DNA of 64,000 nucleotides from a virus. The notes beneath the pieces were generated by a model. The model made no database searches, was not told where the DNA came from, and worked only from the letters and a program-made list of their open reading frames with translations. The position numbers were made by a program, and so were the translations under genes. Location of the stretch: positions 32,001-96,000 of the IMG/VR virus record IMGVR_UViG_3300009506_000005. One strand, given 5' to 3'. Positions 46,580-60,401 of the stretch are shown here, piece after piece (the first letter of the stretch is position 1; each line of letters starts with the position of its first letter).

Positions 46580-48025
46580 ATGGTTCTCGCCATAACGAAG
46601 AAAACGGAATCAGATCTCACCGACTGGCTTGCCACGGAGGCCGGGTTCCTCCAGGGGCTGTGCCGGTATGACGAGGAGCCGATCAAGCTCGACGCCTACC
46701 AGGCGGCGTTCCTGTCCCAGGACAACAAGTACCGCTGTGTGGAGAAGGCCAGGCAGGTTGGATTCTCGTTTCTCTTCGCCCTGGAGGCCGTGGCCAGATG
46801 CCACCTGCGGCCAGCTCAGACCTCGGTCTTCGTGTCCTACAATCTGAGCGACTCCAAGGAGAAGATCGGGTACGCGCGCCAGCTCTACGAGGAGATGCCC
46901 GCCGCGTATCAGAAGAAGCTGATCGTTGACTCCAAGCTGGAGCTCGCCTTCGAGAGCAACGGCTCCAAGAAGGTGAGCAGGATCATCTCCAACCCCAGCC
47001 GCGCGCCCCGCGGGAAGAAAGGGGACATCTACCTGGACGAGCTCGCGCACTATGTGGACGACAGGAGCGTCTACAAGGGATCCACCGCGCTCATCCTCCG
47101 CTCCCGCGGCCAACTGTCCATCTGCTCCACGCCCCTCGGGCGCCGCGGGGTCTTCTGGGAGATCGCGCGCCAGGAGCTCAAGCCGTACCGAGCCTACAAG
47201 AGACAGCGCGTGCCGTGGTGGCTCTGCCGGTTCTTCTGCGTGGACGTGGAGAAGGCAGCCGTGGATGCGCCGCACATGCCAACGGAGGATCGCGTCAAGC
47301 GTTTCGGTTCGGAGGGCATCGTCGATCAGTTTGATTCCCTCCTCCTCGAAGACTTCCAGCAAGAGTTCGAGCACGAGTACATCGATGAGAGCTACTCGTT
47401 CTTCCCCTACGACCTGATCATGCCCTGCACGGACGACCCCAGGGAGGGCGAGCTGGGGGGCTTGGACTTCTGGCGTGACGTGACCGATGCCGGCAGGGTA
47501 AGAGGGCGCCTCATTGCGGGGTTCGATGTCGGGCGTCACCGGGACTTGTCCGAGCTCGCCATCTTCGAGGAGATAGGAGAGCACAAGTTCTGCCGCATGC
47601 TCCAGCGCTTCGATCGCGTGCCGTTCGCCGTCCAGGAGGAGGAGTGCCGGCGCGTTCTCAACACCCTACCGATCGCGCGTTTCTGTATCGACTCCACCGG
47701 GATCGGGATGCACCTGGCAGAGAACCTCTCCGTGGACTTCCCGCAGATCCAAGAGGTCACGTTCAGCAACGAGGTGAAGGAGACCCTCTGCAACGATTTC
47801 AAGATCCTGCTCCAGCAACGCAGGATGACGCTCCCGAGCGATCGCGAGCTCGTGGCGCAGATTCACTCCATCAAGCGCCGTGTCACCTCCACGGGGAAGG
47901 CCAAGTTCGAATCGGAGTCCACAGGGAAGGGGCATGCCGATCGATTCTGGGCGTGTGCCCTCGCTGTGCAGAAGGAGCGTGTCCCCATAGGCAAGCCCAG
48001 CGTGGGCTTCCGGGTAGTTGGATGA
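46580..48025 (+). CDS. terL: Terminase large subunit
   Basis: EKARQVGFS Walker A, IYLDE Walker [28 protein letters not shown]. Confidence 0.93.
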
Positions 48026-48070: not shown

Positions 48071-48367
48071 ATGAGACCTCAGCAAAAAGCACTTGATATC
48101 CCGGCCGCCATCGGCCAGGGGGCGCCCATCGATGTTTTCAACTTCCGGGATTCCTCGGTTCAGATCGGCGGCACGTTCGTGGCCACCATCCAGATCGAGG
48201 GGCGCCTGGACGATTCGATGCCGTGGAGCGCGATCGGTTCTCCCGTGACGGCTCCCGGGTTCGTGGACCTCCCCCACATCGTGAAGGACATCCGTGCGAA
48301 TGTGACCGGATACACGTCCGGCACCCCCGAGGGCTTCTTCGCTGGGTTCAACGCGAGGACCGAGTAA
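48071..48367 (+). CDS. Small beta-rich hypothetical (possibly virion) protein
   Basis: Lies between TerL and portal; TAATG coupling. Confidence 0.6.
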   Translation: MRPQQKALDIPAAIGQGAPIDVFNFRDSSVQIGGTFVATIQIEGRLDDSMPWSAIGSPVTAPGFVDLPHIVKDIRANVTGYTSGTPEGFFAGFNARTE

Positions 48368-50187
48368 TGAGCGATGCGCCTGACAGCGTGAAGCTCAAGG
48401 TCGTCGAGAGTGCTGCGGACGGCACGGAGAAGAACAGGGAGATCATCTTCAAGGTAGCTGGAGAGGGTGCCGGCCTGGAGAGCAACGCGGTGGTCTCCAC
48501 TCAGGAGACGGAGAATGGGTTCCTCGCGCTCGGAGCAATCGACCCTCCATACCCGCCAGATTCTCTCTGCCGCATCTTCGAGCACTCAAATTCGCTGAGG
48601 CAGTGCGTGGACGCATACGTCACGAACATTGAGAGCTTTGGCTTCCGGCTCGATCCGTTGATCGACTTCGAGAGCAGTGAGGCCGATGAGCAGATCGCCG
48701 ATGCGATCTGGTTGTCTCGCGGAGGTGGCAGCGATCGGCCGTCCGATCAGGAGGTTGCCGAGAAGAAGAAGGAGATGGTGGCCGAGGCCGTCATGGAGAA
48801 GGCCAGCCTTCTCCGCTTCTTCGGTCAGGTGGGACTCGACCTCAACCTCACGTCCCTGCGCAAGAGAAAGCGCGGAGACCAGGAGGTGCAGGGGAACGCG
48901 TACTGGGAGATCCTCAGGAGCAAGAGCGGGGAGCCGGCACGGTTCGTCCACGTTCCGGCGCAGACCGTCCGCTTGATGCCGCTCGATCCTCGCATAGTGA
49001 CCGTCAGGGAGAAGGTGAGGTCCTCGGTCTTTGCCTACACGGAGAAGCCGGCGAGGAAGCGCTTCCGCAAGTACGTCCAGATGATCAACGGGATGCCCAC
49101 CGTCTACTTCAAGCAGTTCGGCGATCCGCGCACCTACTCGAAGAAGACAGGGGATGAGATCAGAGATCCCGAGTCTCATCAATGGGACTCAGGAGATGGT
49201 CCGGCGACGGAGATCATCCACTTCGAGATCTACTCGCCGAGGAGCGCCTACGGCGTGCCGCGGTGGATCGGTGCTCTGCTTTCCGTCCTCGGTTCTCGCA
49301 GTGCCGAGGAGGTCAACTACTACTACTTCGAGAACAAGGCCGTTCCCCCTCTTGCCATCCTCGTGAGCGGGGGACGTCTGGCTGAGGAGGCGATCCCTCG
49401 TCTGGAAACGTTCATCAAGGAGAACCTCCAGGGCTCCACGAAATCATTCCACAAGATCATGATCCTGGAGGCTGAGGGGGAGAAGGGTGGCGGAACAGCC
49501 GGGAACGTGAAGATCGAGATCAAGCCCCTGACCGAGGCCATGATACAGGAGGAGCTGTTCTCGAAGTACGATGAGCGGAACATCGACAAGGTGGGGGAGG
49601 CGTTCCGTCTTCCGCGCATTCTCCGCGGGCAGTCCAAGGACTTCAACCGCGCTACTAGCCTGAGCGCCTTGCGGTTCGGCGAGGAGCAGGTCTTCCAGCC
49701 GGAGCGTGACGAGTTCGATGCGTGGATCAACCGCGAGATCTTCCCCCTGCTCAACTCGCGCTACTGGATTTTCCGGACGAACGCACCGCTCACCCGCGAT
49801 CCAGAACGCATGACGGAAATGGTCGTGAAGCTCGTGGAGGTGGGTGTTCTGACTCCGAACGAGGGGCGCCTGCTCGCGGGAGACATCTTCAACAGGGACT
49901 TCCGGGAGATCCGCGAGGACTGGGGACGCCAGCCGTTGAAGATGACTCTTGCGGGGATCAAGGGAGGGAACGGCCAGAAGGGTGCCGATGGCATGGCCCT
50001 CGACGTTGTTGGTGGAAACGATCTGGACAAGATGCGCGATGGAGATGGGCGGGAGACGGTCATGTTCAAGGTAGCGAATCTTCAGGCGCTCCGGGACCTC
50101 TGCGATCAGCGTCTATCGGACATCGACGATCATCTGCTTGCCCAGGATCTTGAGGCGTTCCCCGAGATGGACGAGCTGGAGGAGTAG
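48367..50187 (+). CDS. Portal protein (PBSX/XkdE-like)
   Basis: GNAYWEI, YGVPRW, YFENKAVP, AFRLP..LRG...FNRAT, LTPNEGR; genomic position. Confidence 0.92.
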   Translation: MSDAPDSVKLKVVESAADGTEKNREIIFKVAGEGAGLESNAVVSTQETENGFLALGAIDPPYPPDSLCRIFEHSNSLRQCVDAYVTNIESFGFRLDPLIDFESSEADEQIADAIWLSRGGGSDRPSDQEVAEKKKEMVAEAVMEKASLLRFFGQVGLDLNLTSLRKRKRGDQEVQGNAYWEILRSKSGEPARFVHVPAQTVRLMPLDPRIVTVREKVRSSVFAYTEKPARKRFRKYVQMINGMPTVYFKQFGDPRTYSKKTGDEIRDPESHQWDSGDGPATEIIHFEIYSPRSAYGVPRWIGALLSVLGSRSAEEVNYYYFENKAVPPLAILVSGGRLAEEAIPRLETFIKENLQGSTKSFHKIMILEAEGEKGGGTAGNVKIEIKPLTEAMIQEELFSKYDERNIDKVGEAFRLPRILRGQSKDFNRATSLSALRFGEEQVFQPERDEFDAWINREIFPLLNSRYWIFRTNAPLTRDPERMTEMVVKLVEVGVLTPNEGRLLAGDIFNRDFREIREDWGRQPLKMTLAGIKGGNGQKGADGMALDVVGGNDLDKMRDGDGRETVMFKVANLQALRDLCDQRLSDIDDHLLAQDLEAFPEMDELEE

Positions 50188-50196
50188 AGCACGCGG

Positions 50197-52296
50197 ATGT
50201 GCGGAAATTGCCACGCGGTCACGTCAGAGCCCGCAGAGGGGTTTGCTACACTCTGGCCACCGGCCTTTCTTGGGAACGATCAGGGTTCAGCCTTTAAGCT
50301 CGCCGGCATCTCCGGTGACACTCCGCGCGCTGCGAATGGATACGGATTGATCGGACCGAGCGGCGAGGCCATCCGCGTGAACGCCAGGACGATCGAGGAG
50401 GCCCGGGCCATCGCCTTCCTCGGAACAGCCGCTGGCCCGATCGACATCCTGGAGGCCGTGGCCATCGGCAAGGATGATCGGGTGGTGTTCCAGAAGCGCG
50501 AGCGCTTGCAGGTCGCCAAGGGCCGGGATGTCCACCGCGGAGTCATCGTGAGCTCGAACGGCTCGGTCACGAAGGCCAAGCTCCCACGCAACCCGCGCAA
50601 CCCTGAGAACTTCGACGAAGAGGTGGAGAAGCTCTCGAAGAAGACGAGCGCGATCGACAGGAAGTACCTGCTCCCGGCTGTGGCCTCCTATGTGGCGATG
50701 CTCAACCGGCAGAAGTGGGACGAGATGACGAAGGCGCAGATCAACAGCGCCTTCAAGAAAGCGGACGCAGTCTTCACCAAGAGCGTGGCAACGCAGGCGA
50801 CGAAGGCCATGCCGCCGTGGGCCAAGGCAACCGGTGACAGCGGAGTTGTTGTGGGCAAGGGCGCCTTCTACTCCGTGCACAAGGAGTATTTCGATCACAT
50901 CTCGATTTCCTGGGACCAGCCGAACACTGTGGCCATCAAGCAGATAGGCGTGCAGGGCGGATGGTGGTACAGGAACTCGGCTGGCGTCCGCTCCACGGCT
51001 CTCACAGCCGAGGCCCGCAAGATCGTCGAGCGCGGTATGCAGCAAGGGTTCGGCCGGGACCAGATCGCCAAGGACCTGCGCGCGCAGCTCGGCCGCAGCT
51101 GGAGGGCTGCGGGTTTCAACTACGCAAGGGTGAATGCGGCCGTGGCCCTGGGCCGTTCGCGTTCCTATTCAGAGCTAAAGAGTTACTTGAGCGCTGGCAT
51201 CGAATGGCTTGAAATTAAAGCAGTTCAAGACGAGAGGACCACAGACATCTGCAAAGCTCTTGATGGGCAGGTTGTGAGCGCGTCGGCTGTGGACTCGGTG
51301 AATGAGGCTGCGGCGAATGTCAGGCGCCCAGAGGACATCAAGGTCGTCAATCCATTTCTGCGAGAGATGAGGAATCCACAGACTGGATTGAAGGAGATTC
51401 GGACGCGCACTGGCGTGAAGTTCGCAACGATCCTCTCTCCCGGAGCTGGGCTTCGCGACCAGAAGGGCGTCTACGCCTTCTCGAAGATGGGAACGCAGAT
51501 GGCAGCGGAGGGCGTCGGAACTCCACCGTATCACGAATTATGTCGTTCGTGGACCGAACCAAGAGGGGATATCTTCCAGGTTCCACGCGGGATGCAGCTC
51601 CGCTCGCCTCTCCAGCGCACCATTCCGCCGCCCAAGGTTCCGCGCGAGGTGAAGAGGCCGCACGAGCCGCTCAGGGTAGTGAAGAGCCCCACGCCGGGCA
51701 ACCCCACGGTGATGGGCGTCCCGAGTGATCTGGACCGCCTGGACCCCACGGGACGCTTGCTGGAGATGGATCCAGGGCGTCCCTTCGCCCTGCGCCCTGG
51801 GAAGCACGCCTCTTTCGCGACATTTCGCCCGAACGCAGCGGGCAATGCGTTCGTGACCGGATCACGCTGGCAGTCCCTCGAACTCGATCCGCGTCTCGCC
51901 CGCATGCCTCGATACGCTGATTGGGATCAGACGGACGCGCTCCGCAACTTCAAGGCCGATGCCAGAGATCGCGTGGTCAACCTGTGGTCGAGGGCCATGA
52001 ACCAGATTGAGGATGTGAAGGCGATCATCTTGTCGGAGTCCACGGGCGCTCGCCGGGTGAGCCGCGTGTGGCAGGTTTTCGATGCGCGGACGGGGAAGAA
52101 GACGTTCTACAGGTTCGATCAAGCGAAGCGCCCCACGCGCAAGTTCCTGATCGAGCTATCGAACGCGGATGGCCAGAAGGCCGCGAAGCTGATACGCAAG
52201 CTCCAGGATACCGGATACATCACGAGAGCGTCGAATCCTGACAAGGTGTTTGGCAAGCTCGCGAAGGAAGTGGACGAGATAGGCAGGCCGCTCTAG
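50197..52296 (+). CDS. MuF / SPP1 gp7-like minor head protein with N- and C-terminal extensions
   Basis: AVQDERTTDICKALDG and PPYHELCRS; follows the portal. Confidence 0.85.
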   Translation: MCGNCHAVTSEPAEGFATLWPPAFLGNDQGSAFKLAGISGDTPRAANGYGLIGPSGEAIRVNARTIEEARAIAFLGTAAGPIDILEAVAIGKDDRVVFQKRERLQVAKGRDVHRGVIVSSNGSVTKAKLPRNPRNPENFDEEVEKLSKKTSAIDRKYLLPAVASYVAMLNRQKWDEMTKAQINSAFKKADAVFTKSVATQATKAMPPWAKATGDSGVVVGKGAFYSVHKEYFDHISISWDQPNTVAIKQIGVQGGWWYRNSAGVRSTALTAEARKIVERGMQQGFGRDQIAKDLRAQLGRSWRAAGFNYARVNAAVALGRSRSYSELKSYLSAGIEWLEIKAVQDERTTDICKALDGQVVSASAVDSVNEAAANVRRPEDIKVVNPFLREMRNPQTGLKEIRTRTGVKFATILSPGAGLRDQKGVYAFSKMGTQMAAEGVGTPPYHELCRSWTEPRGDIFQVPRGMQLRSPLQRTIPPPKVPREVKRPHEPLRVVKSPTPGNPTVMGVPSDLDRLDPTGRLLEMDPGRPFALRPGKHASFATFRPNAAGNAFVTGSRWQSLELDPRLARMPRYADWDQTDALRNFKADARDRVVNLWSRAMNQIEDVKAIILSESTGARRVSRVWQVFDARTGKKTFYRFDQAKRPTRKFLIELSNADGQKAAKLIRKLQDTGYITRASNPDKVFGKLAKEVDEIGRPL

Positions 52297-52337
52297 TTGC
52301 GGCGAGAACAGGTCAAGAACCAACGGAGGTAAAGAAA

Positions 52338-52772
52338 ATGACCGAGGAAGAGAAGAAAGACGGGAAGGGGAAAGAGGGCGAGAAGGACGGGAAGGACGAG
52401 AAGAAGGGTGACGAGGAGAAGAAGCCCGAGGAGGGAAAAGGGGGCGAGGGTGCCGCTGGCGACAAGGGCGGTGATGACAAGGAGAAGGATGGGGACGACG
52501 CCAAGGGCAAGGATGGCGGCGGTGATGACAAGGGGGACAAGGGTGGCGACGATGGAGGCGAGAAGCCGGTCAAGGACAAGCCCGAGTCCGGCGGTGAGGG
52601 TGGCGGCGGTAGTGACAAGGAAGACGGGAAAGGCGGGGACAGCGGGGGTGACGAGAAGGACTCCGGTGGTGATGGAGACGGCGACAAGGACTTCGCGTGG
52701 CCCGCTGATATGAACGCCAAGGAAGAGGACGAGAAGGACAAGATCAGCTTCGGAGACGACCCCGTCTTCTAG
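52338..52772 (+). CDS. G/D/K/E low-complexity protein with a scaffold-like C-terminus
   Basis: Low-complexity body; WPADMN...ISFG. Confidence 0.65.
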   Translation: MTEEEKKDGKGKEGEKDGKDEKKGDEEKKPEEGKGGEGAAGDKGGDDKEKDGDDAKGKDGGGDDKGDKGGDDGGEKPVKDKPESGGEGGGGSDKEDGKGGDSGGDEKDSGGDGDGDKDFAWPADMNAKEEDEKDKISFGDDPVF

Positions 52773-52781
52773 GAGGTCCCC

Positions 52782-55700
52782 GTGGGCAAGAGAGAAGGGA
52801 ACTATCGAGCGCCGACCGGGAAGGTCTCGGGTGGCAGGAAGCCGGCGGCGAAGCGCGAGGACGTCGAGGCGACGATCGAGCTTGGCGAGGAGTCCGCTAC
52901 CGCAGTGCTATCAGCGCGTTCGCTCGCGCAGAAGTTCGCCGAGGTGGCCGCTGGGTTCGATGACGATGTGATCGATCCACTTCGCGAGTGCGAGGTGGGA
53001 GAGAACGCGGTGGAGATCCTGGAGATCCTTCCGCTCGTCTCGAAGAATCTGGCAGCCGAGTTCTCACGCCTCCAGGATGAAGGTGGCGATGGGGAAGTCC
53101 CGCAGGTGGATACGGGCGATCCGCTGGAGATCGGCGCCGCCCTTCTCTCTTGCTCAGCGAACGTCAGGAAGTCCCTGGAGGACGCCCCGCGGGACATCGT
53201 AGAGGCCGTGGACCAGGGCATCGATTCCCTGCGGGCCTTTCTCTCGTTGCCGGATCAGCTCGATGGAGAGGACCATGCGGCTGAGTTCTTCACGAAGGCT
53301 GACCGCATTCCGAAGCCGTTCCGCTCGCCGGGTGGAAAGGCGCAGCTCGTCAACGTTCTTCTGTCCAGGGTTCCCGAGCACAAGGTCTACGTGGAGCCCT
53401 ACGCTGGCTCGGCCACGCTGTTCTGGGCGAAGAAGAAGGTGGAGAAGGAGGTGCTTTCTGACCTGAACGAGGGCGTCGTGGGGCTGTTCAAGTTCTTGCA
53501 GGAGGCCGGAGAGGCGGACTTCGAGTGGATGCGGAAGCAGATCTGGGGCTACGACGCGGTCAACTTCAATAAGCTCAAGGAGAAGGAGAGCGGCTCCGCA
53601 CGCTACAAGGCATATCGCTTCAAGTACCTGAACCTCTACTCCATGCGCGGGCGTGGCGAGACCATCGATGATTCCCCGCGCTCTCGCGGTCAGACGGGTG
53701 CCCTGTTCCTGCGGAACCTGGAGCGCTACAAGGAGCGCCTCGAAAACGTTCGTGTCATCCACGGTGACGCCCTGGAGGTGATGAAGAAGTACGATCGCTC
53801 TGGCGTCTTCATGTACATCGATCCTCCCTGGCGTCCAGAGCAGGGTTCTCCCGAGTGGAAGGCCTACGACCACGAGGCGTTCGAGAAGGCGGTCAGTGGA
53901 CTGAAAGCGAACGCCTTGGTCTCCTACCAGGGGAAGCTCGTACTGGGAGATGGATGGCGGAAGCACAAGCACACGAGCGTGCTGGGTGGCATCTCTAAGG
54001 AGACCACGCAATCCCTCTACTGGAACTACAACTTCCGTGGCGTTGAAGCCAAGCGCGAAGGGACGTCCGGATGCGAATTCTGCGATGCTCTCGCGGCCGA
54101 AGCCTTCGTCTGGGATGGCGGCATCATCAAGTCGTGTCACGAGCACGAGAGCCAGGCGCGCGAGCTGATCGAGAACGTGAACAAGTCCGAGGTCCTGGCC
54201 GTCCGGGATTGCGAGCTACCCGAGCAGGAGGAGGTGGCGAAGCTCTCCATCGATGAGATGAACCCGCGCAGCCTGCGAGAGGTCAGCGACAGGGAGCTGC
54301 TATCCCTCAACCGGCGCCTGCATCAACTGTATGGCAAGAACTTCGAGGGCAACGACAAGATCACGTCTGGAGACCTGAACCGAGAGGATCTGGTCAACGC
54401 CTACATCTTCGTCTCGAACGAGATGAAGACGCGGGAGATGGAGCTGAACGATACTTCCTTGGCGATCGAGGCGCGGACGCTCGCCAAGGAAGAGGGGAAG
54501 AAGGAGCTTGCTCCGGTACTCCCGGGATCATCCGGCGCGCATCCGCTGATCAAGATCGAGGAGGTGCTCCCGCACTTCAAGTCCTTCAAGATCCGCATGC
54601 CGTTCCTTTGGCTCGTTGGCTCGCTTGCGAACATGGGCAAGACGGAGAACGACATCGACCTCCTCGTGAAGGGGCCCTGCTCCGAGGAGCTGCTCCAGGT
54701 GCTCAAGTTCCGTCTCGGGCGCATGTTGCCGCCGGAGCTGAGCAAGCGCCTGTCGGTGATGGAAGACGAGCTGGGTGGCCCGTTCACCTCGCATGTGGAG
54801 CTCGCCGACCTCGTGGTGGAGATGAGGCCGGCGTTTGCGGTCAAGGAGATGGCGCTCGCCAAGCAGGACGACCCGCTCCTGGACTTGCCGAAGGAGGCCG
54901 GGAAGAAGAAGGCCGTCTTCCAGTACCACGCACGTGGGTCAAGCTTGCATCTGGATCTCAGGATGGAGCTCGCCGACTTCCTCGTGGGCTGGACCATGGC
55001 CAACCAGCGCTCTGGTAAGGTGCCAGTGATTGAGACGATGGACGAGTTGAAGAGGATCGGCTCCTCGTTCTCGCCGGACGGTGACCAGTACACGAAGCCC
55101 TTCCGCTCGCCAGCGAGACTGGCTGCGTTCCCGAAGAGCAGGCAGCCGGAAGTCTGGCTGGGGATATCAGCCAGGCGGTTCGAGCCCGGCGAGGTAGGCG
55201 CCTCGCGGAACGAGTACGGCGTGATCGTGGCCGTGGATCGGCCCTCTGTCGAGTACGGTACCCAATCAAGCCGCTTCCACGAATACTTCTTCACTGGGAA
55301 GGACGCCGCCGTGCAGGGCATTCTCGCCTTCCGCCAGCTCGTGGGGAGGGGAAAGGCCATCAAGCTGGAGGGCGAGGGGGGCGATCCATTCGAGGAGGGG
55401 CGCCGCACGCCGGCTGGCCGCACCTTCTGGACCTCGATGCTCACCTCCTCGGCGCTACCCTCCGTCCTCAAGCGGCGCGCAGTGCACGAGGGCCGAATGC
55501 CGCCCGATGGGAAGAGCGCGATCCCCATCTCGCTGGAGAGGGTCACGCCCAAGGAGTTCCGCTACTGGGAGGCCAAGGGTAAGGAGGCACGCGAGATCCG
55601 CGATGCGCTGGTCTCCTCCCGCTTCTTCACCGAGCAGAACGTAGGCATCGTGGACGGCGAGTTCCGGCGCCTCGTCCAGAAGACCTACCTCTACACCGGC

Positions 55701-57671
55701 GACGGCTCTGATTTCACGTTCAAGGCCGAGTCCGAGCCATTCGCCTTGTCTTGGCAGAGGTGGAAGGGTCAGAGCGTTGTGAGGACCGGGCCCAGCCGCC
55801 AGGTGTGGCACCTGACAGTCGGTGGTCTCCCTGGCTGGAAGCTCCAGCGTGATCCCCTCGCGGGTGACGAGGTGACGGCCGTCGAGAAGCCGAAGGCCAA
55901 CTCCGCGCTCTTCGAGCTCGAAGGTGATGTCGAGCCTGGAAAGGAGCTTGGCGGCGAGGTCCTGAACGATACCAAGGCCACGCCCTCGGAGATCTCCATC
56001 GTCGATGAGGGCCGGGCGGAGATCATCGACAGGAAGCCCGGGCTCATCCGCCTGCGGTTCAGGGGCAAGAAGCTCCAGGGGATCTACACGCTGGAGGCCG
56101 AGGAGAAGGGATCGGAGATCTGGACGTTCGCCAAGGATGCCGAGGCAGAGAAGAGAGAGGAGGACGACCCCTGGAAGACGGGTGATGTGGAGTTGGCGGA
56201 CATCGAGGACACGGAGAAGGCGATCCCCGTCCGTGGAGGGGTGCAGATCTGGGACCCTGAGAAAAAGGACCCGAACGTTGACCGCGAGCAGCTGGAGCCA
56301 CTGGCCATCTTTTCTCCGATGAAGCCGGCGAAGCGGTTCGATGACACGGCTGCGGCCGTCAAGGAGTGGGGCCATGGCGCCGCCATCGAGCACGGCGTGT
56401 TCGTGGAGCCCAAGGAGAACGGTTTTAGATTCAGCGTCCAGAAGAAGGGCGATCAGGTCTTCTCGTTCACCGAGGACGAGAAGCGGGACTTGCTTCCGCT
56501 GCTTCCAACGGTGCGCGAGGCTCTGGAGAGAATCCCCGGGGAATGGATCCTGGACACCGAGTTCATGGAGGAGGAAGAGGGCGGTGGGTTTGTTCCGCGT
56601 CGTGACTTGGCGAGGTTCAGGGGGAAGGAGCCGCAGGACGACAAGCGCGTGCGCTTGAAGGTGGTTGACCTGCTCTACCACAACGGCCGCAACTTGCTCG
56701 GACGCCCGTACCACGAGCGCCGCTCTGCCCTGCGTCGGTTCTTCGATGGGAAGAAGACGCTGGGACCGCTGGTCATCACGCCCACGAAGCTGGCGAAGAG
56801 CGCTGAGCAGCTGCAACGAGCGATCGCCTGGGCTCGCAAGGTTCCTGGGTCCGAGGGCGCCATGCTCAAGCTGTACGGATCCACTTACTCCCTCGGTGGC
56901 GAGAACTCGGCGTGGGCGAAGATCAAGGACTCGCGAGAGATTCGCGCCATCGTCTACGAGAGACATCCTGTCAAGGATTCGCCCGGGGTCTACAACTTCT
57001 TCGGCGCCGTGGGGCCCGTGCGCGAGGATGAGTGGAATGAGACTGTGGAGGTCGGAGGAAAGACCTACACGCCGGTGGGGCGCACCTTCAACTCGAAGGA
57101 GGAGGCCGAGGTCGGAGATGTCATCCGCGTGGAGGCCACGGAGATCCTCGTTGACGCGAGTGGCGACAAGAAGTCACTGCGCTGGTTCACGCCCACGGTG
57201 ATCGAACGGGTGGACACGAGACCAATGACGGCGGCCGATGTCGTAAGGCTGGCGAAGCCCGAGGAGATCAAGAAGATCGCGGACGCCATCCTCCAGCGCG
57301 AGATCCCCATCTTCAAGGCTGACGAAGAGCGGCTCGTCTACGGCGAGGTCCTCATCCCCGAGGAGGTGGACGCGCAGAAAGAGATCTACAGCGAGGAGGA
57401 GGTGCGCCAGGCGGCCCACGGGTTCATGGAGAACTTCCAGAACCTCGGTGTCATGCACAAGGAGCTCGCGAACGGGCGCCTCAAGATCCTGGAGAGCTTC
57501 ATCGCCCCGGTGGAGATGGAGATCGCTGGGAAGAAGATCAAGAAGGGCACATGGCTCCTCGCCGTCCGCGTGATTTCGGACAAGCTGTGGAAGCAGGTGA
57601 AGGACGGAAAATGGACCGGATTTTCTATCGGCGGATCGGCCGTTCGCGTGGCGGAAACCTCGGCAACTTGA
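52782..57671 (+). CDS. Polyprotein: Dam-like methylase + nucleotidyltransferase + LigD 3'-phosphoesterase-like domain(s) + ATP-dependent DNA ligase + XkdF-type prohead protease
   Basis: PGGK/EPYAGS/DPPW; VGS..NDIDL; QYHARGSSLHLDLRME; EPKENG/LDTEF/VDLL/EGAMLK/WAKIK; LVYGEVLIP...MH...ESFIAP...GFSIGG. Confidence 0.88.
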   Translation: MGKREGNYRAPTGKVSGGRKPAAKREDVEATIELGEESATAVLSARSLAQKFAEVAAGFDDDVIDPLRECEVGENAVEILEILPLVSKNLAAEFSRLQDEGGDGEVPQVDTGDPLEIGAALLSCSANVRKSLEDAPRDIVEAVDQGIDSLRAFLSLPDQLDGEDHAAEFFTKADRIPKPFRSPGGKAQLVNVLLSRVPEHKVYVEPYAGSATLFWAKKKVEKEVLSDLNEGVVGLFKFLQEAGEADFEWMRKQIWGYDAVNFNKLKEKESGSARYKAYRFKYLNLYSMRGRGETIDDSPRSRGQTGALFLRNLERYKERLENVRVIHGDALEVMKKYDRSGVFMYIDPPWRPEQGSPEWKAYDHEAFEKAVSGLKANALVSYQGKLVLGDGWRKHKHTSVLGGISKETTQSLYWNYNFRGVEAKREGTSGCEFCDALAAEAFVWDGGIIKSCHEHESQARELIENVNKSEVLAVRDCELPEQEEVAKLSIDEMNPRSLREVSDRELLSLNRRLHQLYGKNFEGNDKITSGDLNREDLVNAYIFVSNEMKTREMELNDTSLAIEARTLAKEEGKKELAPVLPGSSGAHPLIKIEEVLPHFKSFKIRMPFLWLVGSLANMGKTENDIDLLVKGPCSEELLQVLKFRLGRMLPPELSKRLSVMEDELGGPFTSHVELADLVVEMRPAFAVKEMALAKQDDPLLDLPKEAGKKKAVFQYHARGSSLHLDLRMELADFLVGWTMANQRSGKVPVIETMDELKRIGSSFSPDGDQYTKPFRSPARLAAFPKSRQPEVWLGISARRFEPGEVGASRNEYGVIVAVDRPSVEYGTQSSRFHEYFFTGKDAAVQGILAFRQLVGRGKAIKLEGEGGDPFEEGRRTPAGRTFWTSMLTSSALPSVLKRRAVHEGRMPPDGKSAIPISLERVTPKEFRYWEAKGKEAREIRDALVSSRFFTEQNVGIVDGEFRRLVQKTYLYTGDGSDFTFKAESEPFALSWQRWKGQSVVRTGPSRQVWHLTVGGLPGWKLQRDPLAGDEVTAVEKPKANSALFELEGDVEPGKELGGEVLNDTKATPSEISIVDEGRAEIIDRKPGLIRLRFRGKKLQGIYTLEAEEKGSEIWTFAKDAEAEKREEDDPWKTGDVELADIEDTEKAIPVRGGVQIWDPEKKDPNVDREQLEPLAIFSPMKPAKRFDDTAAAVKEWGHGAAIEHGVFVEPKENGFRFSVQKKGDQVFSFTEDEKRDLLPLLPTVREALERIPGEWILDTEFMEEEEGGGFVPRRDLARFRGKEPQDDKRVRLKVVDLLYHNGRNLLGRPYHERRSALRRFFDGKKTLGPLVITPTKLAKSAEQLQRAIAWARKVPGSEGAMLKLYGSTYSLGGENSAWAKIKDSREIRAIVYERHPVKDSPGVYNFFGAVGPVREDEWNETVEVGGKTYTPVGRTFNSKEEAEVGDVIRVEATEILVDASGDKKSLRWFTPTVIERVDTRPMTAADVVRLAKPEEIKKIADAILQREIPIFKADEERLVYGEVLIPEEVDAQKEIYSEEEVRQAAHGFMENFQNLGVMHKELANGRLKILESFIAPVEMEIAGKKIKKGTWLLAVRVISDKLWKQVKDGKWTGFSIGGSAVRVAETSAT

Positions 57672-57735
57672 CAAGCCCTACATTCAGGCGGCAAAATATC
57701 ACCAATTGACACGGGTATTTCGGAGCGGGTAGGAT
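57668..57735 (+). promoter_or_regulatory. Tandem sigma70-like promoters for scaffold and capsid
   Basis: TTGACA-18-CAAAAT (57668) and TTGACA-18-TAGGAT (57706). Confidence 0.6.
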
Positions 57736-57871
57736 CTAGGAAATCGCGCGACTTGGAAGGGGAACCCAACGTGGCGCGGAAGTGAACAAGATGACTGCAT
57801 CCTTGCAAAGTTCCCCATCCCAATCACACGGTCGGATCGGAGCGTTGCTACCTACCCACGGGGAGAGGTAA

Positions 57872-58981
57872 GTGGATTTTCTGGACCACTTGGCGAGCAT
57901 CGAGAAGCAGGTCACGCGCCTGTTGGACATCGAGGTCAAGGAGGTCTCTGTTGTGGACCGTGCGGCCAACAAGCGCCGCTTTCTCATCGTCAAAAGGGAG
58001 GACGACATGCCGGATCCCATCGGTAAAGAAGTGAAAGAAGACGGGCAGGGTAACCTCTCGACCGAGGAGGACAAGATGGAGGAGGAGGACGAGAAGAAGG
58101 CAGACGCCCCTCTTCACGCCAAGCTCGCCGGCGAGGCGATCGACTCCCTCATCATGAAGGTGACCGGCCTGCGGGAGAAGCTCACGAGCGGCATGGCCAC
58201 TCTGGAGGAGATCAACGACCTGAGCAGCGCCTTCTGGCCGCTCATGGACTCCCTGCGCTCGGCTGCGGTGGTGATCGCCAAGGCCGACGTGGAGAAGGCC
58301 GACATGGAGATCCCGAAGCCCGTCAAGGAGGCTGTCCTGCGGACGGCCACCGAGGCGATGGAGCGCCTGCTCTCGGCTGTCAACGGTCTCAAGGAGGCCC
58401 AGACGAACGATGAGCAGTCCGACGCCCCGCTGCCCGAGGAGTACACCAAGGAGTTCAGCGCGATCGCCGGGCTGCTCTCCGGAATCTCCGAGAAGTACCC
58501 GTCGCCGAAGTCCGCCGCCTGCGGGGACAAGGAGAAGGCGAAGAAGGGCGACGCGGAGAAGTCCGATGCCATGGAGAAGGTCATCGACAAGCTCGATGCC
58601 ATCTCCAAGAAGGTGGACAGCGCCCTCTCCAGCGTGAAGAAGGTGGACGAGGAGGAGGAGAAGAAGGGCGACTCCAAGGAGGAGAAGGGCGGCGAGGGCG
58701 AGGAGGAAGAGAAGCCGAAGGCAGAGGAAGGCAAGAAGCCCGAAGGCGACGGCGAGGCCAAGGAGGTGGAGAAGGCCCTGGCCAAGCGCGACAAGGAGAT
58801 CACCGATCTTCGCGAGCAGGTCGCGAAGCAGGCGGAGAAGATCACCGCACTCGAAGAGGCGGATATCGCCCCCAACTCGTCAGCCCCCGAGGGCGTGGCG
58901 AAGATGGAGGAAGAGGATCCGTGCTGGCGAAGTGACATGGCGGACGAGTCCGAGGTGGACGCGGACGTTTCCTTCGATTAG
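57872..58981 (+). CDS. Capsid scaffold protein with an N-terminal protease strand (EVSVVDRAAN)
   Basis: Directly upstream of the capsid; charged coiled coil; protease-type motif. Confidence 0.8.
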   Translation: MDFLDHLASIEKQVTRLLDIEVKEVSVVDRAANKRRFLIVKREDDMPDPIGKEVKEDGQGNLSTEEDKMEEEDEKKADAPLHAKLAGEAIDSLIMKVTGLREKLTSGMATLEEINDLSSAFWPLMDSLRSAAVVIAKADVEKADMEIPKPVKEAVLRTATEAMERLLSAVNGLKEAQTNDEQSDAPLPEEYTKEFSAIAGLLSGISEKYPSPKSAACGDKEKAKKGDAEKSDAMEKVIDKLDAISKKVDSALSSVKKVDEEEEKKGDSKEEKGGEGEEEEKPKAEEGKKPEGDGEAKEVEKALAKRDKEITDLREQVAKQAEKITALEEADIAPNSSAPEGVAKMEEEDPCWRSDMADESEVDADVSFD

Positions 58982-59050
58982 CGAGCGGACGAGGTAAAGG
59001 TCAAGAGAGACGATCAACAGAGCGAACAACTAGAAAGACGGAGGAAACAA

Positions 59051-59986
59051 ATGAACGACAACCGCTCGATCATCGAAAAAGCGGACCTCGCCGTAAGCGA
59101 TCTGATCTCGGGAGGGGGCTATCTCCAACCGGCACAGGCGGCGAAGTTCATTCGGCTCTTGATCAAGGAGAGCTCGGTCATGAACATGGCGTCGGTCAAG
59201 CCGATGAAGGCCCCGAAGGAGCTGATCGAGAAGATCCGCTTCGGTTCCCGGGTCCTGCGCGCTGGCACCGAGGCCGTGGCGCTTCCGGTGGCGGACCGGG
59301 TGAAGCCGGACCTCACCAAGACGGAGCTGGACGCCAAGCTGTTCAAGGCGGAGACGCGGATCAGCTACGAGGCGCTGGAGGACTCCATCGAGAGGGGCCA
59401 GCTCAAGAACACGATCATGCAGGAGCTCGGCAAGGCCGTCGCCCGGGACATGGACGAGGTGATCGTGAACGGCGACACCGCGAGCGCCGACACCTTCCTC
59501 GCGCAGCTCGACGGCCTGCTCAAGCAGACCACGAGCAACGTGACGGACGCCCTGATCGCCCCGCTGGACAAGGACATCCTGCGGGACATGCTCAAGGCGA
59601 TGCCGAGCGAGTGGCTCCGCGACAAGAAGGCGATGCGGTTCATCACCTCCGTGGACGCCCTGCTCGACTACCGCAACACGCTCGCGGACCGCGAGACCGT
59701 GGCCGGGGACCGGTGGCTCACCGAGGACGTGCCGATCATGTACTCCGGTGTGCCGCTCGTGGACGCGCCGCTCTTCCCGGAGAACCTCGGCGCGGGGAGC
59801 AACGAGACGAACGTCCTGCTCTCCGACCCGAAGAACATCCAGGTCGGCATCTGGCGGCAGATCCGCCTGGAGACGCAGAAGGACGCCCCGGCCGGCGTGC
59901 TCATCATCGTGGCGACCCTCCGCTTCGACGTGAAGTGGGTCGAGGAGACCGCCGCGGTGAAGTGCATCAAGGTCAAGGTGGCCTAG
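59051..59986 (+). CDS. Major capsid protein (HK97 fold, XkdG-like)
   Basis: [35 protein letters not shown]; strong codon bias. Confidence 0.92.
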
Positions 59987-60071
59987 AGCGCTTCTTCCCC
60001 GGGGAGAAGGTAACCAAGAACGAACGGGGAGCGCGTCGGTTGGCGTGCTACCCGAAGAAGGAGAGTGAAAG

Positions 60072-60401
60072 ATGGCCCTCACCAACGTAGCATCGCAGAC
60101 CCCCTCCGGCGGCCAGCCGTCCGCACCCCTGCGCGCGGACCGCGTGACGTTCAGCGGAGACAACGCCTACCCCGCCGGCGGGACGCCGGACATGCCGACC
60201 GAGCTCAAGGCCGCGTTCCCCAAGATCCTGCCCACGATCGTGGACATCACGGGGCGGGACTCCACGGGGCAGTACGCCCTGTCGTGGGACTCGGCGAACC
60301 AGAAGCTCCAGATCCTGGACATGAGCGCCACTCCCCCGGCGGAGGTGGCTCCGGGCGATCAGTCCGCCCTCACGTTCCAGGCGACCGTCCTGAGCAAGTA
60401 G
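60072..60401 (+). CDS. Probable head decoration protein
   Basis: Follows the capsid gene; TFSGDNAYPAGG. Confidence 0.6.
   Translation: MALTNVASQTPSGGQPSAPLRADRVTFSGDNAYPAGGTPDMPTELKAAFPKILPTIVDITGRDSTGQYALSWDSANQKLQILDMSATPPAEVAPGDQSALTFQATVLSK

Follow-up and report, generated by a model that had tools for sequence, protein, structure and literature searches.

Enzymes that protect phage DNA can travel inside the head. The P1 Dar system (with the DarB methyltransferase) and the T4 proteins IPI* and Alt, whose capsid-targeting sequences are cleaved by the protease, enter the procapsid, undergo processing by the head protease, and leave with the DNA that they protect. Another class, the "polyvalent proteins" of phages and of conjugative elements and plasmids, was defined by Iyer, Burroughs, Anand, de Souza, and Aravind in 2017 (PMC5512222). 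In portal-terminase phages, these proteins hold 2 to 15 effector domains in one polypeptide, the assemblin-like peptidase invariably stands at the C terminus, and capsid packaging and delivery with the DNA were predicted; the domain list includes DNA methylases and minimal Pol-beta nucleotidyltransferases. The text of that paper makes no mention of XkdF, a LigD-type phosphoesterase, or a DNA ligase. Here, we describe a phage gene that joins these three in one polyprotein. It lies in a window of 64,000 nucleotides (nt), bases 32001-96000 of the 113,769-bp IMG/VR virus record IMGVR_UViG_3300009506_000005, a genome with a completeness rating of 100%; coordinates are window positions. In order, the protein holds a D12 methylase, a Cys/His and helical region, a nucleotidyltransferase, two LigD-type phosphoesterase domains (PE1 and PE2), a DNA ligase, and an XkdF protease, and it may serve to load these enzymes into the phage head.

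An earlier note on this DNA, made from the letters of the sequence, had placed a 1629-amino-acid (aa) open reading frame (ORF) in the slot usual for the maturation protease. The ORF does stand there, as a single frame between MuF and the scaffold and capsid genes. It starts with GTG, with AGGAGG 6 nt upstream as a strong ribosome-binding site (RBS), and this start overlaps the stop of the preceding small gene. Pfam domains in the polyprotein (P0001 in the scans) were judged against per-family cutoffs. The gene and its parts are as follows.

52782..57671, + strand: polyprotein ORF, 1629 aa, one open frame between MuF/the 144-aa ORF and scaffold; an identical protein is on record (P0005).
52782..53306, + strand: N-terminal region, aa 1-175, with a basic start, then acidic and helical; common only to the closest relatives.
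53328..53930, + strand: D12-class N6-adenine DNA methyltransferase, aa 183-383 (Pfam PF02086, E 5e-19, 69.4 bits versus a cutoff of 22).
54039..54506, + strand: Cys/His module (CEFC at aa 431, ..CHEH) and conserved helical region, aa 420-575, recognized by sequence.
54594..54815, + strand: minimal Pol-beta-type nucleotidyltransferase, aa 605-678 (AlphaFold2 [AF2] model; VIA Z 6.2 to 8xeh_E and Z 6.0 to 1no5_B).
54903..55460, + strand: PE1, LigD-type 3'-phosphoesterase fold, aa 708-893 (AF2 model; VIA).
55461..55730, + strand: helical extension after PE1, aa 894-983, with conserved FRYWE and RDALV.
55731..56156, + strand: PE2, second LigD-type phosphoesterase (PE) fold, aa 984-1125 (VIA, Foldseek, profile match).
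56334..56927, + strand: ATP-dependent DNA ligase adenylyltransferase domain, aa 1185-1382 (Pfam PF01068, DNA_ligase_A_M, E 4e-19, 69.6 bits versus 26.2).
56928..57221, + strand: probable OB domain of the ligase, aa 1383-1480, judged by the conserved sequence after motif V.
57315..57650, + strand: XkdF-type prohead protease (Peptidase_S78_2, PF14550), aa 1512-1623 (Pfam E 2e-29, 102.3 bits versus a cutoff of 24; PHROG head maturation protease families).

The methylase carries DPPW at aa 347, and a PDB sequence search with it matches Dam structures. No family was found for aa 1-175, and the helical region (aa 480-575) is conserved in most relatives. Searched segment by segment, aa 1-180, 400-575, 560-720, 700-990, and 960-1180 gave no Pfam, PHROG, or PDB match by sequence, and the folds of the core were therefore predicted by modeling. 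Against the ESM Atlas, aa 415-700 gave weak leads only (zinc-binding 0.81, NTP_transf_2 0.77), and the polyprotein core gave no usable match. In the per-segment profile check proposed in the earlier note, MethyltransfD12, DNA_ligase_A_M, and Peptidase_S78_2 were recovered, whereas LigD_N fell below its cutoff and NTP_transf did not match the nucleotidyltransferase segment at an E of ≤10.

For the core, aa 570-1135 were aligned with 46 relatives and modeled (AF2 predicted local distance difference test [pLDDT] 88), and folds were compared by VIA Z. The nucleotidyltransferase fold resembles the minimal nucleotidyltransferases of HEPN-MNT type, with Z values of 6.2 and 6.0 that lie in the middling range. 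Its motif GSLANMGKTENDID (GS..DID, aa 613-626) and a third carboxylate, D676, are conserved among relatives (G613 in 37/38, D624 in 38/39, D626 in 39/39, and D676 in 40/41).

In the large model, a given LigD structure was able to match just one of the domains, and PE1 was therefore also modeled alone, as aa 700-985 (AF2 pLDDT 91.5). Alone, it matches 3p4h_A with a Z of 13.5 over 117 of 118 residues (root mean square deviation [rmsd] 2.1) and 3n9b_A with a Z of 11.5; the next best chain reaches 3.6. The residues Q714, H716, H723, D725, and R727 (QYH..LHLDLR) are kept in 47/47 sequences, and K785, W792, and E834 are likewise invariant. Gln-x-His...His-x-Asp-x-Arg is the metal and phosphate site of the LigD PE of Pseudomonas aeruginosa. 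At the position of the LigD HPLxY (His84 and Tyr88), an alignment made by eye puts QPEVW in PE1 (Q788 and W792).

PE2 is structurally the more canonical LigD-PE fold of the two copies. It matches the archaeal and Pseudomonas LigD phosphoesterases (3p4h, Z 15.2, rmsd 2.0, 112 residues; 3n9b, Z 13.3), with a Foldseek E of 2.7e-6 and a sequence-profile match to 3p43 at an E of 5.5e-6. It lacks the catalytic His, Asp, and Arg; at the motif position stands W..WHLTV, which varies among relatives. Since these catalytic residues are not conserved, PE2 is probably inactive.

The ligase has motif I as KENG with K1211 (codon 56412-56414), EGAMLK at 1358, and WAKIK at 1378, and it matches PDB DNA ligases at an E of 3e-10 by sequence and 8e-14 by profile. 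The segment that follows, aa 1380-1510, has no Pfam match, and its sequence is conserved in relatives. No further ligase, ATP or NAD dependent, is detectable in the genome, despite the phage's own DnaB-type helicase. Ku, reported absent from the window in the earlier note, has no match in the complete genome either at an E of ≤1, and the Pfam scan of the polyprotein found no archaeo-eukaryotic primase (AEP)-type polymerase domain.

In 26 family sequences (alignment A3), K1512, H1559, E1571, and S1615 of XkdF are invariant. The XkdF chain always stops some 10 residues past GFSIGG. K1512 stands at the N-terminal border of the protease domain in a hydrophobic-hydrophobic-Lys context. No match to solved structures was found with the XkdF profile. 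HK97-type S78, ClpP, S49, and T4-type S77 proteases are all absent from the genome at an E of ≤1, which leaves XkdF as the only recognizable prohead protease family there. No in-frame internal start preceded by a Shine-Dalgarno (SD) sequence lies ahead of the protease domain; an isoform consisting of XkdF alone was ruled out on this ground, and each protease molecule is therefore made attached to about 1,500 residues of cargo.

Thus, the domains that the earlier note had read from the letters were borne out: the Dam/D12-type methylase, the Pol-beta-type nucleotidyltransferase with GS..DID (with a moderate fold match), the LigD-like phosphoesterase with QYH..LHLDLR, its degenerate second copy, the ATP-dependent DNA ligase with its Lys codon at 56412, and the C-terminal XkdF-type protease with invariant His and Ser.

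The genes around the polyprotein form a head module, listed here with the putative promoters.

46580-48025: large terminase, upstream of the portal gene.
48223-50187: portal, upstream of MuF.
50197..52296, + strand: MuF-like minor head protein (Pfam Phage_Mu_F, 30.7 bits versus a cutoff of 29.6; PHROG minor head protein families).
52338-52772: 144-aa ORF without a family, between MuF and the polyprotein; kept in the closest relatives (L003-L005).
57668..57735, + strand: two sigma-70-like promoter matches, TTGACA-18-CAAAAT and TTGACA-18-TAGGAT, 10/12 each, consensus matches only.
57872..58981, + strand: scaffold-like protein, an acidic coiled-coil (PHROG and sequence comparison).
59051..59986, + strand: major capsid protein of the HK97 fold family (Pfam Phage_capsid, E 4e-14; phrog_1623, E 4e-90).

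The scaffold protein opens with a motif, EVKEVSVVDRAANKRRFLIVK (57932-57994, scaffold aa 21-41), that hardly varies among 26 related phages, although the scaffold is divergent elsewhere. Its family form is EEVSLVDRAANkRrFLvVK; it is the only well-conserved part of the scaffold and always stands at the start of the gene after the polyprotein. In phrog_3017, the family of canonical XkdF-scaffold proteins, one chain carries the motif at positions 4-33, the protease at 35-157, and a scaffold-like tail. Because motif and protease share a chain there and are split over two genes here, the comparison suggests that the scaffold N terminus may dock on XkdF, or complete it in trans by strand complementation, and so draw the polyprotein into the procapsid. 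Lysines are conserved at K1512, in the scaffold motif, and before PE1. They are a lead toward a possible hydrophobic-x-Lys cleavage code at domain borders, although so short a motif does not allow enrichment to be tested meaningfully.

The two promoter matches are the only ones in 50000-60200. They fall inside the 200-nt gap between the polyprotein and scaffold genes, with GGAGAGG and a GTG start downstream of them, an arrangement that suggests that scaffold and capsid are expressed separately from, and at a higher level than, the polyprotein. Frameshifting or readthrough from polyprotein to scaffold was ruled out in this phage by this gap with its promoter-like sites and RBS.

The architecture is far from unique to this phage. 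A word-indexed search gave 59 giant relatives of 985 to 2373 aa with the same parts, and an exhaustive phmmer search of 1.84 billion cluster representatives with the core gave 1093 matches at an E of ≤1e-3 and 744 at an E of ≤1e-10, almost all of them 700 to 2200 aa long. The family comprises more than 1000 clusters at 50% identity and is almost confined to viral metagenome contigs; the three core domains of the cargo match no PHROG family. What does not vary is the helical region, the nucleotidyltransferase, PE1, and PE2. The methylase occurs in 0 to 3 copies at varying positions, and some relatives add cytosine methylases, inteins, 2H phosphoesterases (PF02834/PF13563), or a metallo-beta-lactamase domain. 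In distant members, the order is nucleotidyltransferase-ligase-PE1-PE2. Three distant PE1-PE2 relatives have further repair-type domains within the ORF: a pyrimidine-dimer DNA glycosylase and DUF6884 (L043:3989-7663), a metallo-beta-lactamase domain (L048:6809-11518), and a polynucleotide kinase (PNK)-type 3'-phosphatase (L050:7025-11194).

Gene context was compared in an IMG/VR set of 80 loci with 56 distinct complete ORFs. XkdF forms the C-terminal end of at least 30 of the 56, and at least 32 have, directly downstream, a capsid gene related to that of this phage. Portal and MuF genes precede the polyprotein wherever the contig extends that far, and the order portal-MuF-polyprotein-scaffold-capsid is kept in more than 30 distinct IMG/VR phages. 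Even at one distant locus without XkdF, a gene for a major head protein follows a few genes downstream.

A scan of 185,579 species genomes gave only three loci, each on a contig of a Myxococcales metagenome-assembled genome (MAG). One of these contigs, JACPVI010000063.1 (105,832 bp; L086 and L087), from a groundwater MAG, has related polyprotein genes (P0009 and the partial P0022) near both ends; it is probably a complete phage genome that was binned into the MAG and offers at most a weak hint of the host. Among 50,697 GenBank phage records, the ANMV-1 archaeal virus gave the only match to the module. A Rhizobium phage "DNA methyltransferase/prohead protease protein" was considered and set aside; it is only a 210-aa XkdF protein.

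What might such a protein do? We propose a polyvalent head protein whose protease end brings the enzymes into the procapsid, where they are probably cut free, to be ejected with the DNA; the methylase would then protect and the LigD-like unit repair. Our credence in this proposal is about evenly divided, and we infer packaging, cleavage, ejection, substrates, and timing throughout. Because the only recognizable maturation protease is made as the tail of a 180-kDa chain, XkdF would carry the attached enzymes to, and probably into, the procapsid; docking on the scaffold protein via its conserved N-terminal motif is a likely loading route. The protease would then probably cut the chain at interdomain linkers, with K1512 as one candidate site, and the freed enzymes would stay in the head and exit with the DNA. 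In the next cell, we imagine that the Dam-type methylase modifies the incoming genome and that the LigD-like module (nucleotidyltransferase, active-looking and degenerate PE, ligase) cleans blocked 3' ends and seals breaks. Host nucleases could cause these, as could damage suffered outside the host or nicks left over from packaging.

What the data show are the identities of the domains, the conservation of their catalytic residues and of the place in the head module, and the wide occurrence of the family. These results, together with the tie of the protease to its cargo, the palindrome avoidance described below, and the precedent of the polyvalent proteins, speak for the proposal. The relatives lend it support through a shared DNA-repair theme (pyrimidine-dimer glycosylase, PNK 3'-phosphatase, 2H phosphoesterase), and their extra repair domains point towards damage acquired outside the host. 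The promoter-like sites past the polyprotein gene may fit a need for few polyprotein copies and many scaffold and capsid copies.

Several observations weigh on the other side. The absence of Ku from the genome makes classical double-strand end joining doubtful. The ligase is the sole one in the genome and could instead serve replication or repair before packaging, and it is missing from some family members. The nucleotidyltransferase fold match is moderate only (Z about 6). The polyprotein scores 15.5 bits with LigD_N (PF13298) against a cutoff of 31.1; two distant relatives do pass that cutoff (L070 with 37.4 bits and L079 with 32.8 bits). The apparent replacement, in the by-eye alignment, of LigD His84 and Tyr88 by Gln788 and Trp792 may mean that PE1 has a different chemistry. 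Finally, 180 kDa per protease copy would cost much capsid volume if the polyprotein is present in about as many copies as other prohead proteases are.

One can envision a more explicit version of the same proposal, which we put forward only tentatively, as possible in all its parts together. In it, a Ku-independent LigD analogue, built from a Pol-beta transferase, an active/inactive PE pair, and a ligase, would be preloaded in the capsids of a large uncultured family. Strand complementation with the scaffold N terminus would tether it to the protease, and cleavage after conserved lysines would free it. Ejected together with the methylase, it would reseal breaks due to restriction, CRISPR, or damage before phage genes are expressed.

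The strongest competitor is that the enzymes are not injected at all and act late in the producing cell, methylating progeny DNA and repairing concatemer nicks and blocked ends before or during packaging; we regard this as possible, if somewhat unlikely. The protease would free the enzymes in the cytoplasm or at the procapsid, and the fusion would mainly set timing and dosage, a version that we see in the same doubtful light. Phage methylases normally modify progeny DNA late in infection, the gene sits within a late head operon beside terminase and portal, and no other ligase, ATP or NAD dependent, is detectable in the genome. The difficulty is that the only recognizable maturation protease has no separate start, so the chain must reach the procapsid. 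Timing alone also explains poorly why the position between MuF and scaffold is kept so strictly across very divergent phages, even in protease-less relatives, and certain members without the ligase still keep PE1 and XkdF.

A module for RNA rather than DNA, which would heal and seal tRNAs or other RNAs after their cleavage by anticodon nucleases or HEPN RNases of the host, seems improbable to us, and we would rate no higher the related idea that the nucleotidyltransferase rebuilds 3' ends or neutralizes a toxin by nucleotidylation. Hints in that direction come from the 2H (LigT-like) phosphoesterase domains (PF02834/PF13563) of some relatives, from the likeness of the nucleotidyltransferase to the MNT antitoxins of HEPN-MNT pairs (8xeh_E, 1no5_B), and from phrog_14859, which pairs "RNA ligase" with XkdF. 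However, the matches of the ligase are to DNA ligase families and structures rather than to RNA ligases, a 5'-kinase domain is absent, the partner methylase is a DNA enzyme, and relatives add two DNA-specific repair domains, a pyrimidine-dimer glycosylase and a PNK 3'-phosphatase. An mRNA-capping enzyme (triphosphatase, guanylyltransferase, methyltransferase) was also considered and ruled out: the barrel has LigD-PE motifs, not those of tunnel metalloenzymes, the nucleotidyltransferase/ligase domain matches DNA ligases, and the methylase is a DNA adenine enzyme.

That the fusion is an assembly or gene-calling artifact joining separate genes has a negligible chance, given a frame open for 1632 codons with a strong RBS and the same fused architecture, at 40 to 73% identity, in dozens of independent metagenomes; misassembly is excluded because so many independent homologues share it.

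Some features of the genome touch on the proposed protection and repair. Palindromes are strongly avoided across the whole genome: CTCGAG was observed 2 times versus 72 expected, CTGCAG 0 versus 25, CGTACG 2 versus 17, and CTAG 65 versus 144. GATC is not avoided (1240 observed versus 1256 expected). Such avoidance indicates past restriction pressure, and the counts are compatible with Dam-type GATC protection, of which they are no proof. The genome also ends in an exact 144-bp terminal repeat (G000:C1:1-144 and 113626-113769), which is more likely an overlap from circular assembly than the biological genome ends. Circularization of the genome, raised in the earlier note, finds no specific support as a process of end joining, given the lack of Ku and a repeat that seems to stem from assembly. 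Replication genes of the phage's own are present, among them one for a DnaB-type replicative helicase at 701-2095 (Pfam E 2e-59).

Should the packaging and ejection of the cargo prove true, the phage would have the first DNA break-repair system delivered by a virion, and a strategy of counterdefense or genome maintenance distinct from inhibitors, base modification, and end-protecting proteins. A head protease would then be seen to work as a handle by which very large enzymes can, in general, be loaded. An active and a degenerate PE combined with a Pol-beta-type transferase and a ligase would represent an independent solution to the task of LigD. The module is relevant to DNA-repair enzymology, and it could possibly be used as a compact reagent for end healing and sealing.

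That brings us back to the known systems. The earlier note had known of no characterized system with this architecture. As to the design, this was overstated: the plan of PMC5512222 and PHROG families that pair XkdF with methyltransferase (phrog_1530) or "RNA ligase" (phrog_14859) were already known. The cargo itself did not turn up in the literature searched, which contained nothing relevant on a published virion ligase or phosphoesterase or an XkdF cargo system.

Like the polyvalent proteins, the product described here has at least seven domains in a single chain, with terminase and portal genes upstream, and the genes of polyvalent proteins, too, are neighbors of portal/terminase packaging genes. 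Unlike in them, what is conserved at its core is a module for healing and sealing DNA ends. For the 2H domains of polyvalent proteins, PMC5512222 states that they are never found together with RNA ligases. The proposed likeness to P1 Dar and to T4 IPI* and Alt is that enzymes would be loaded, processed, and ejected. Those cargos are encoded by separate genes and carry short targeting peptides, with no ligase-phosphoesterase module and no fusion to the protease. With the canonical XkdF-scaffold proteins of phrog_3017, the polyprotein shares the protease domain and, through its neighbor, a VSLVDRxAN-type motif, but here the protease stands at the end of the polyprotein, and the motif at the start of the gene that follows, that of the scaffold.

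The only GenBank relative of the module, AJP62006.1 of ANMV-1 (KP703175, L001:3200-5800), is annotated as "ATP-dependent DNA ligase." Its 866 aa align to aa 575-1474, that is, nucleotidyltransferase, PE, PE, and ligase. In contrast to the polyprotein, it lacks XkdF and the methylase, with an identity of about 30%, and its gene adjoins those for a MutT-like hydrolase and a 1166-aa hypothetical protein instead of lying between MuF and scaffold.

The closest cellular counterpart is bacterial LigD (POL-PE-LIG), which acts in Ku-dependent nonhomologous end joining. In both, a 3'-phosphoesterase of the same fold, with QxH..HxDxR conserved in PE1, shares its chain with an ATP-dependent DNA ligase and a domain that adds nucleotides. 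The differences lie in that last domain, a minimal Pol-beta-type nucleotidyltransferase here and an archaeo-eukaryotic primase-type POL in LigD; in the duplication of the PE, one copy of which is degenerate; in the equivalents of His84 and Tyr88, which look replaced in the by-eye alignment; and in the setting, a protease-fused gene within a phage head module, in a genome without Ku. The module would work like LigD but is not a LigD: neither Ku nor the AEP polymerase is present, and the PE active site appears to differ in part. The design principle, then, is known, while the cargo it would carry, a nucleotidyltransferase, a tandem phosphoesterase, and a DNA ligase, appears to be new.

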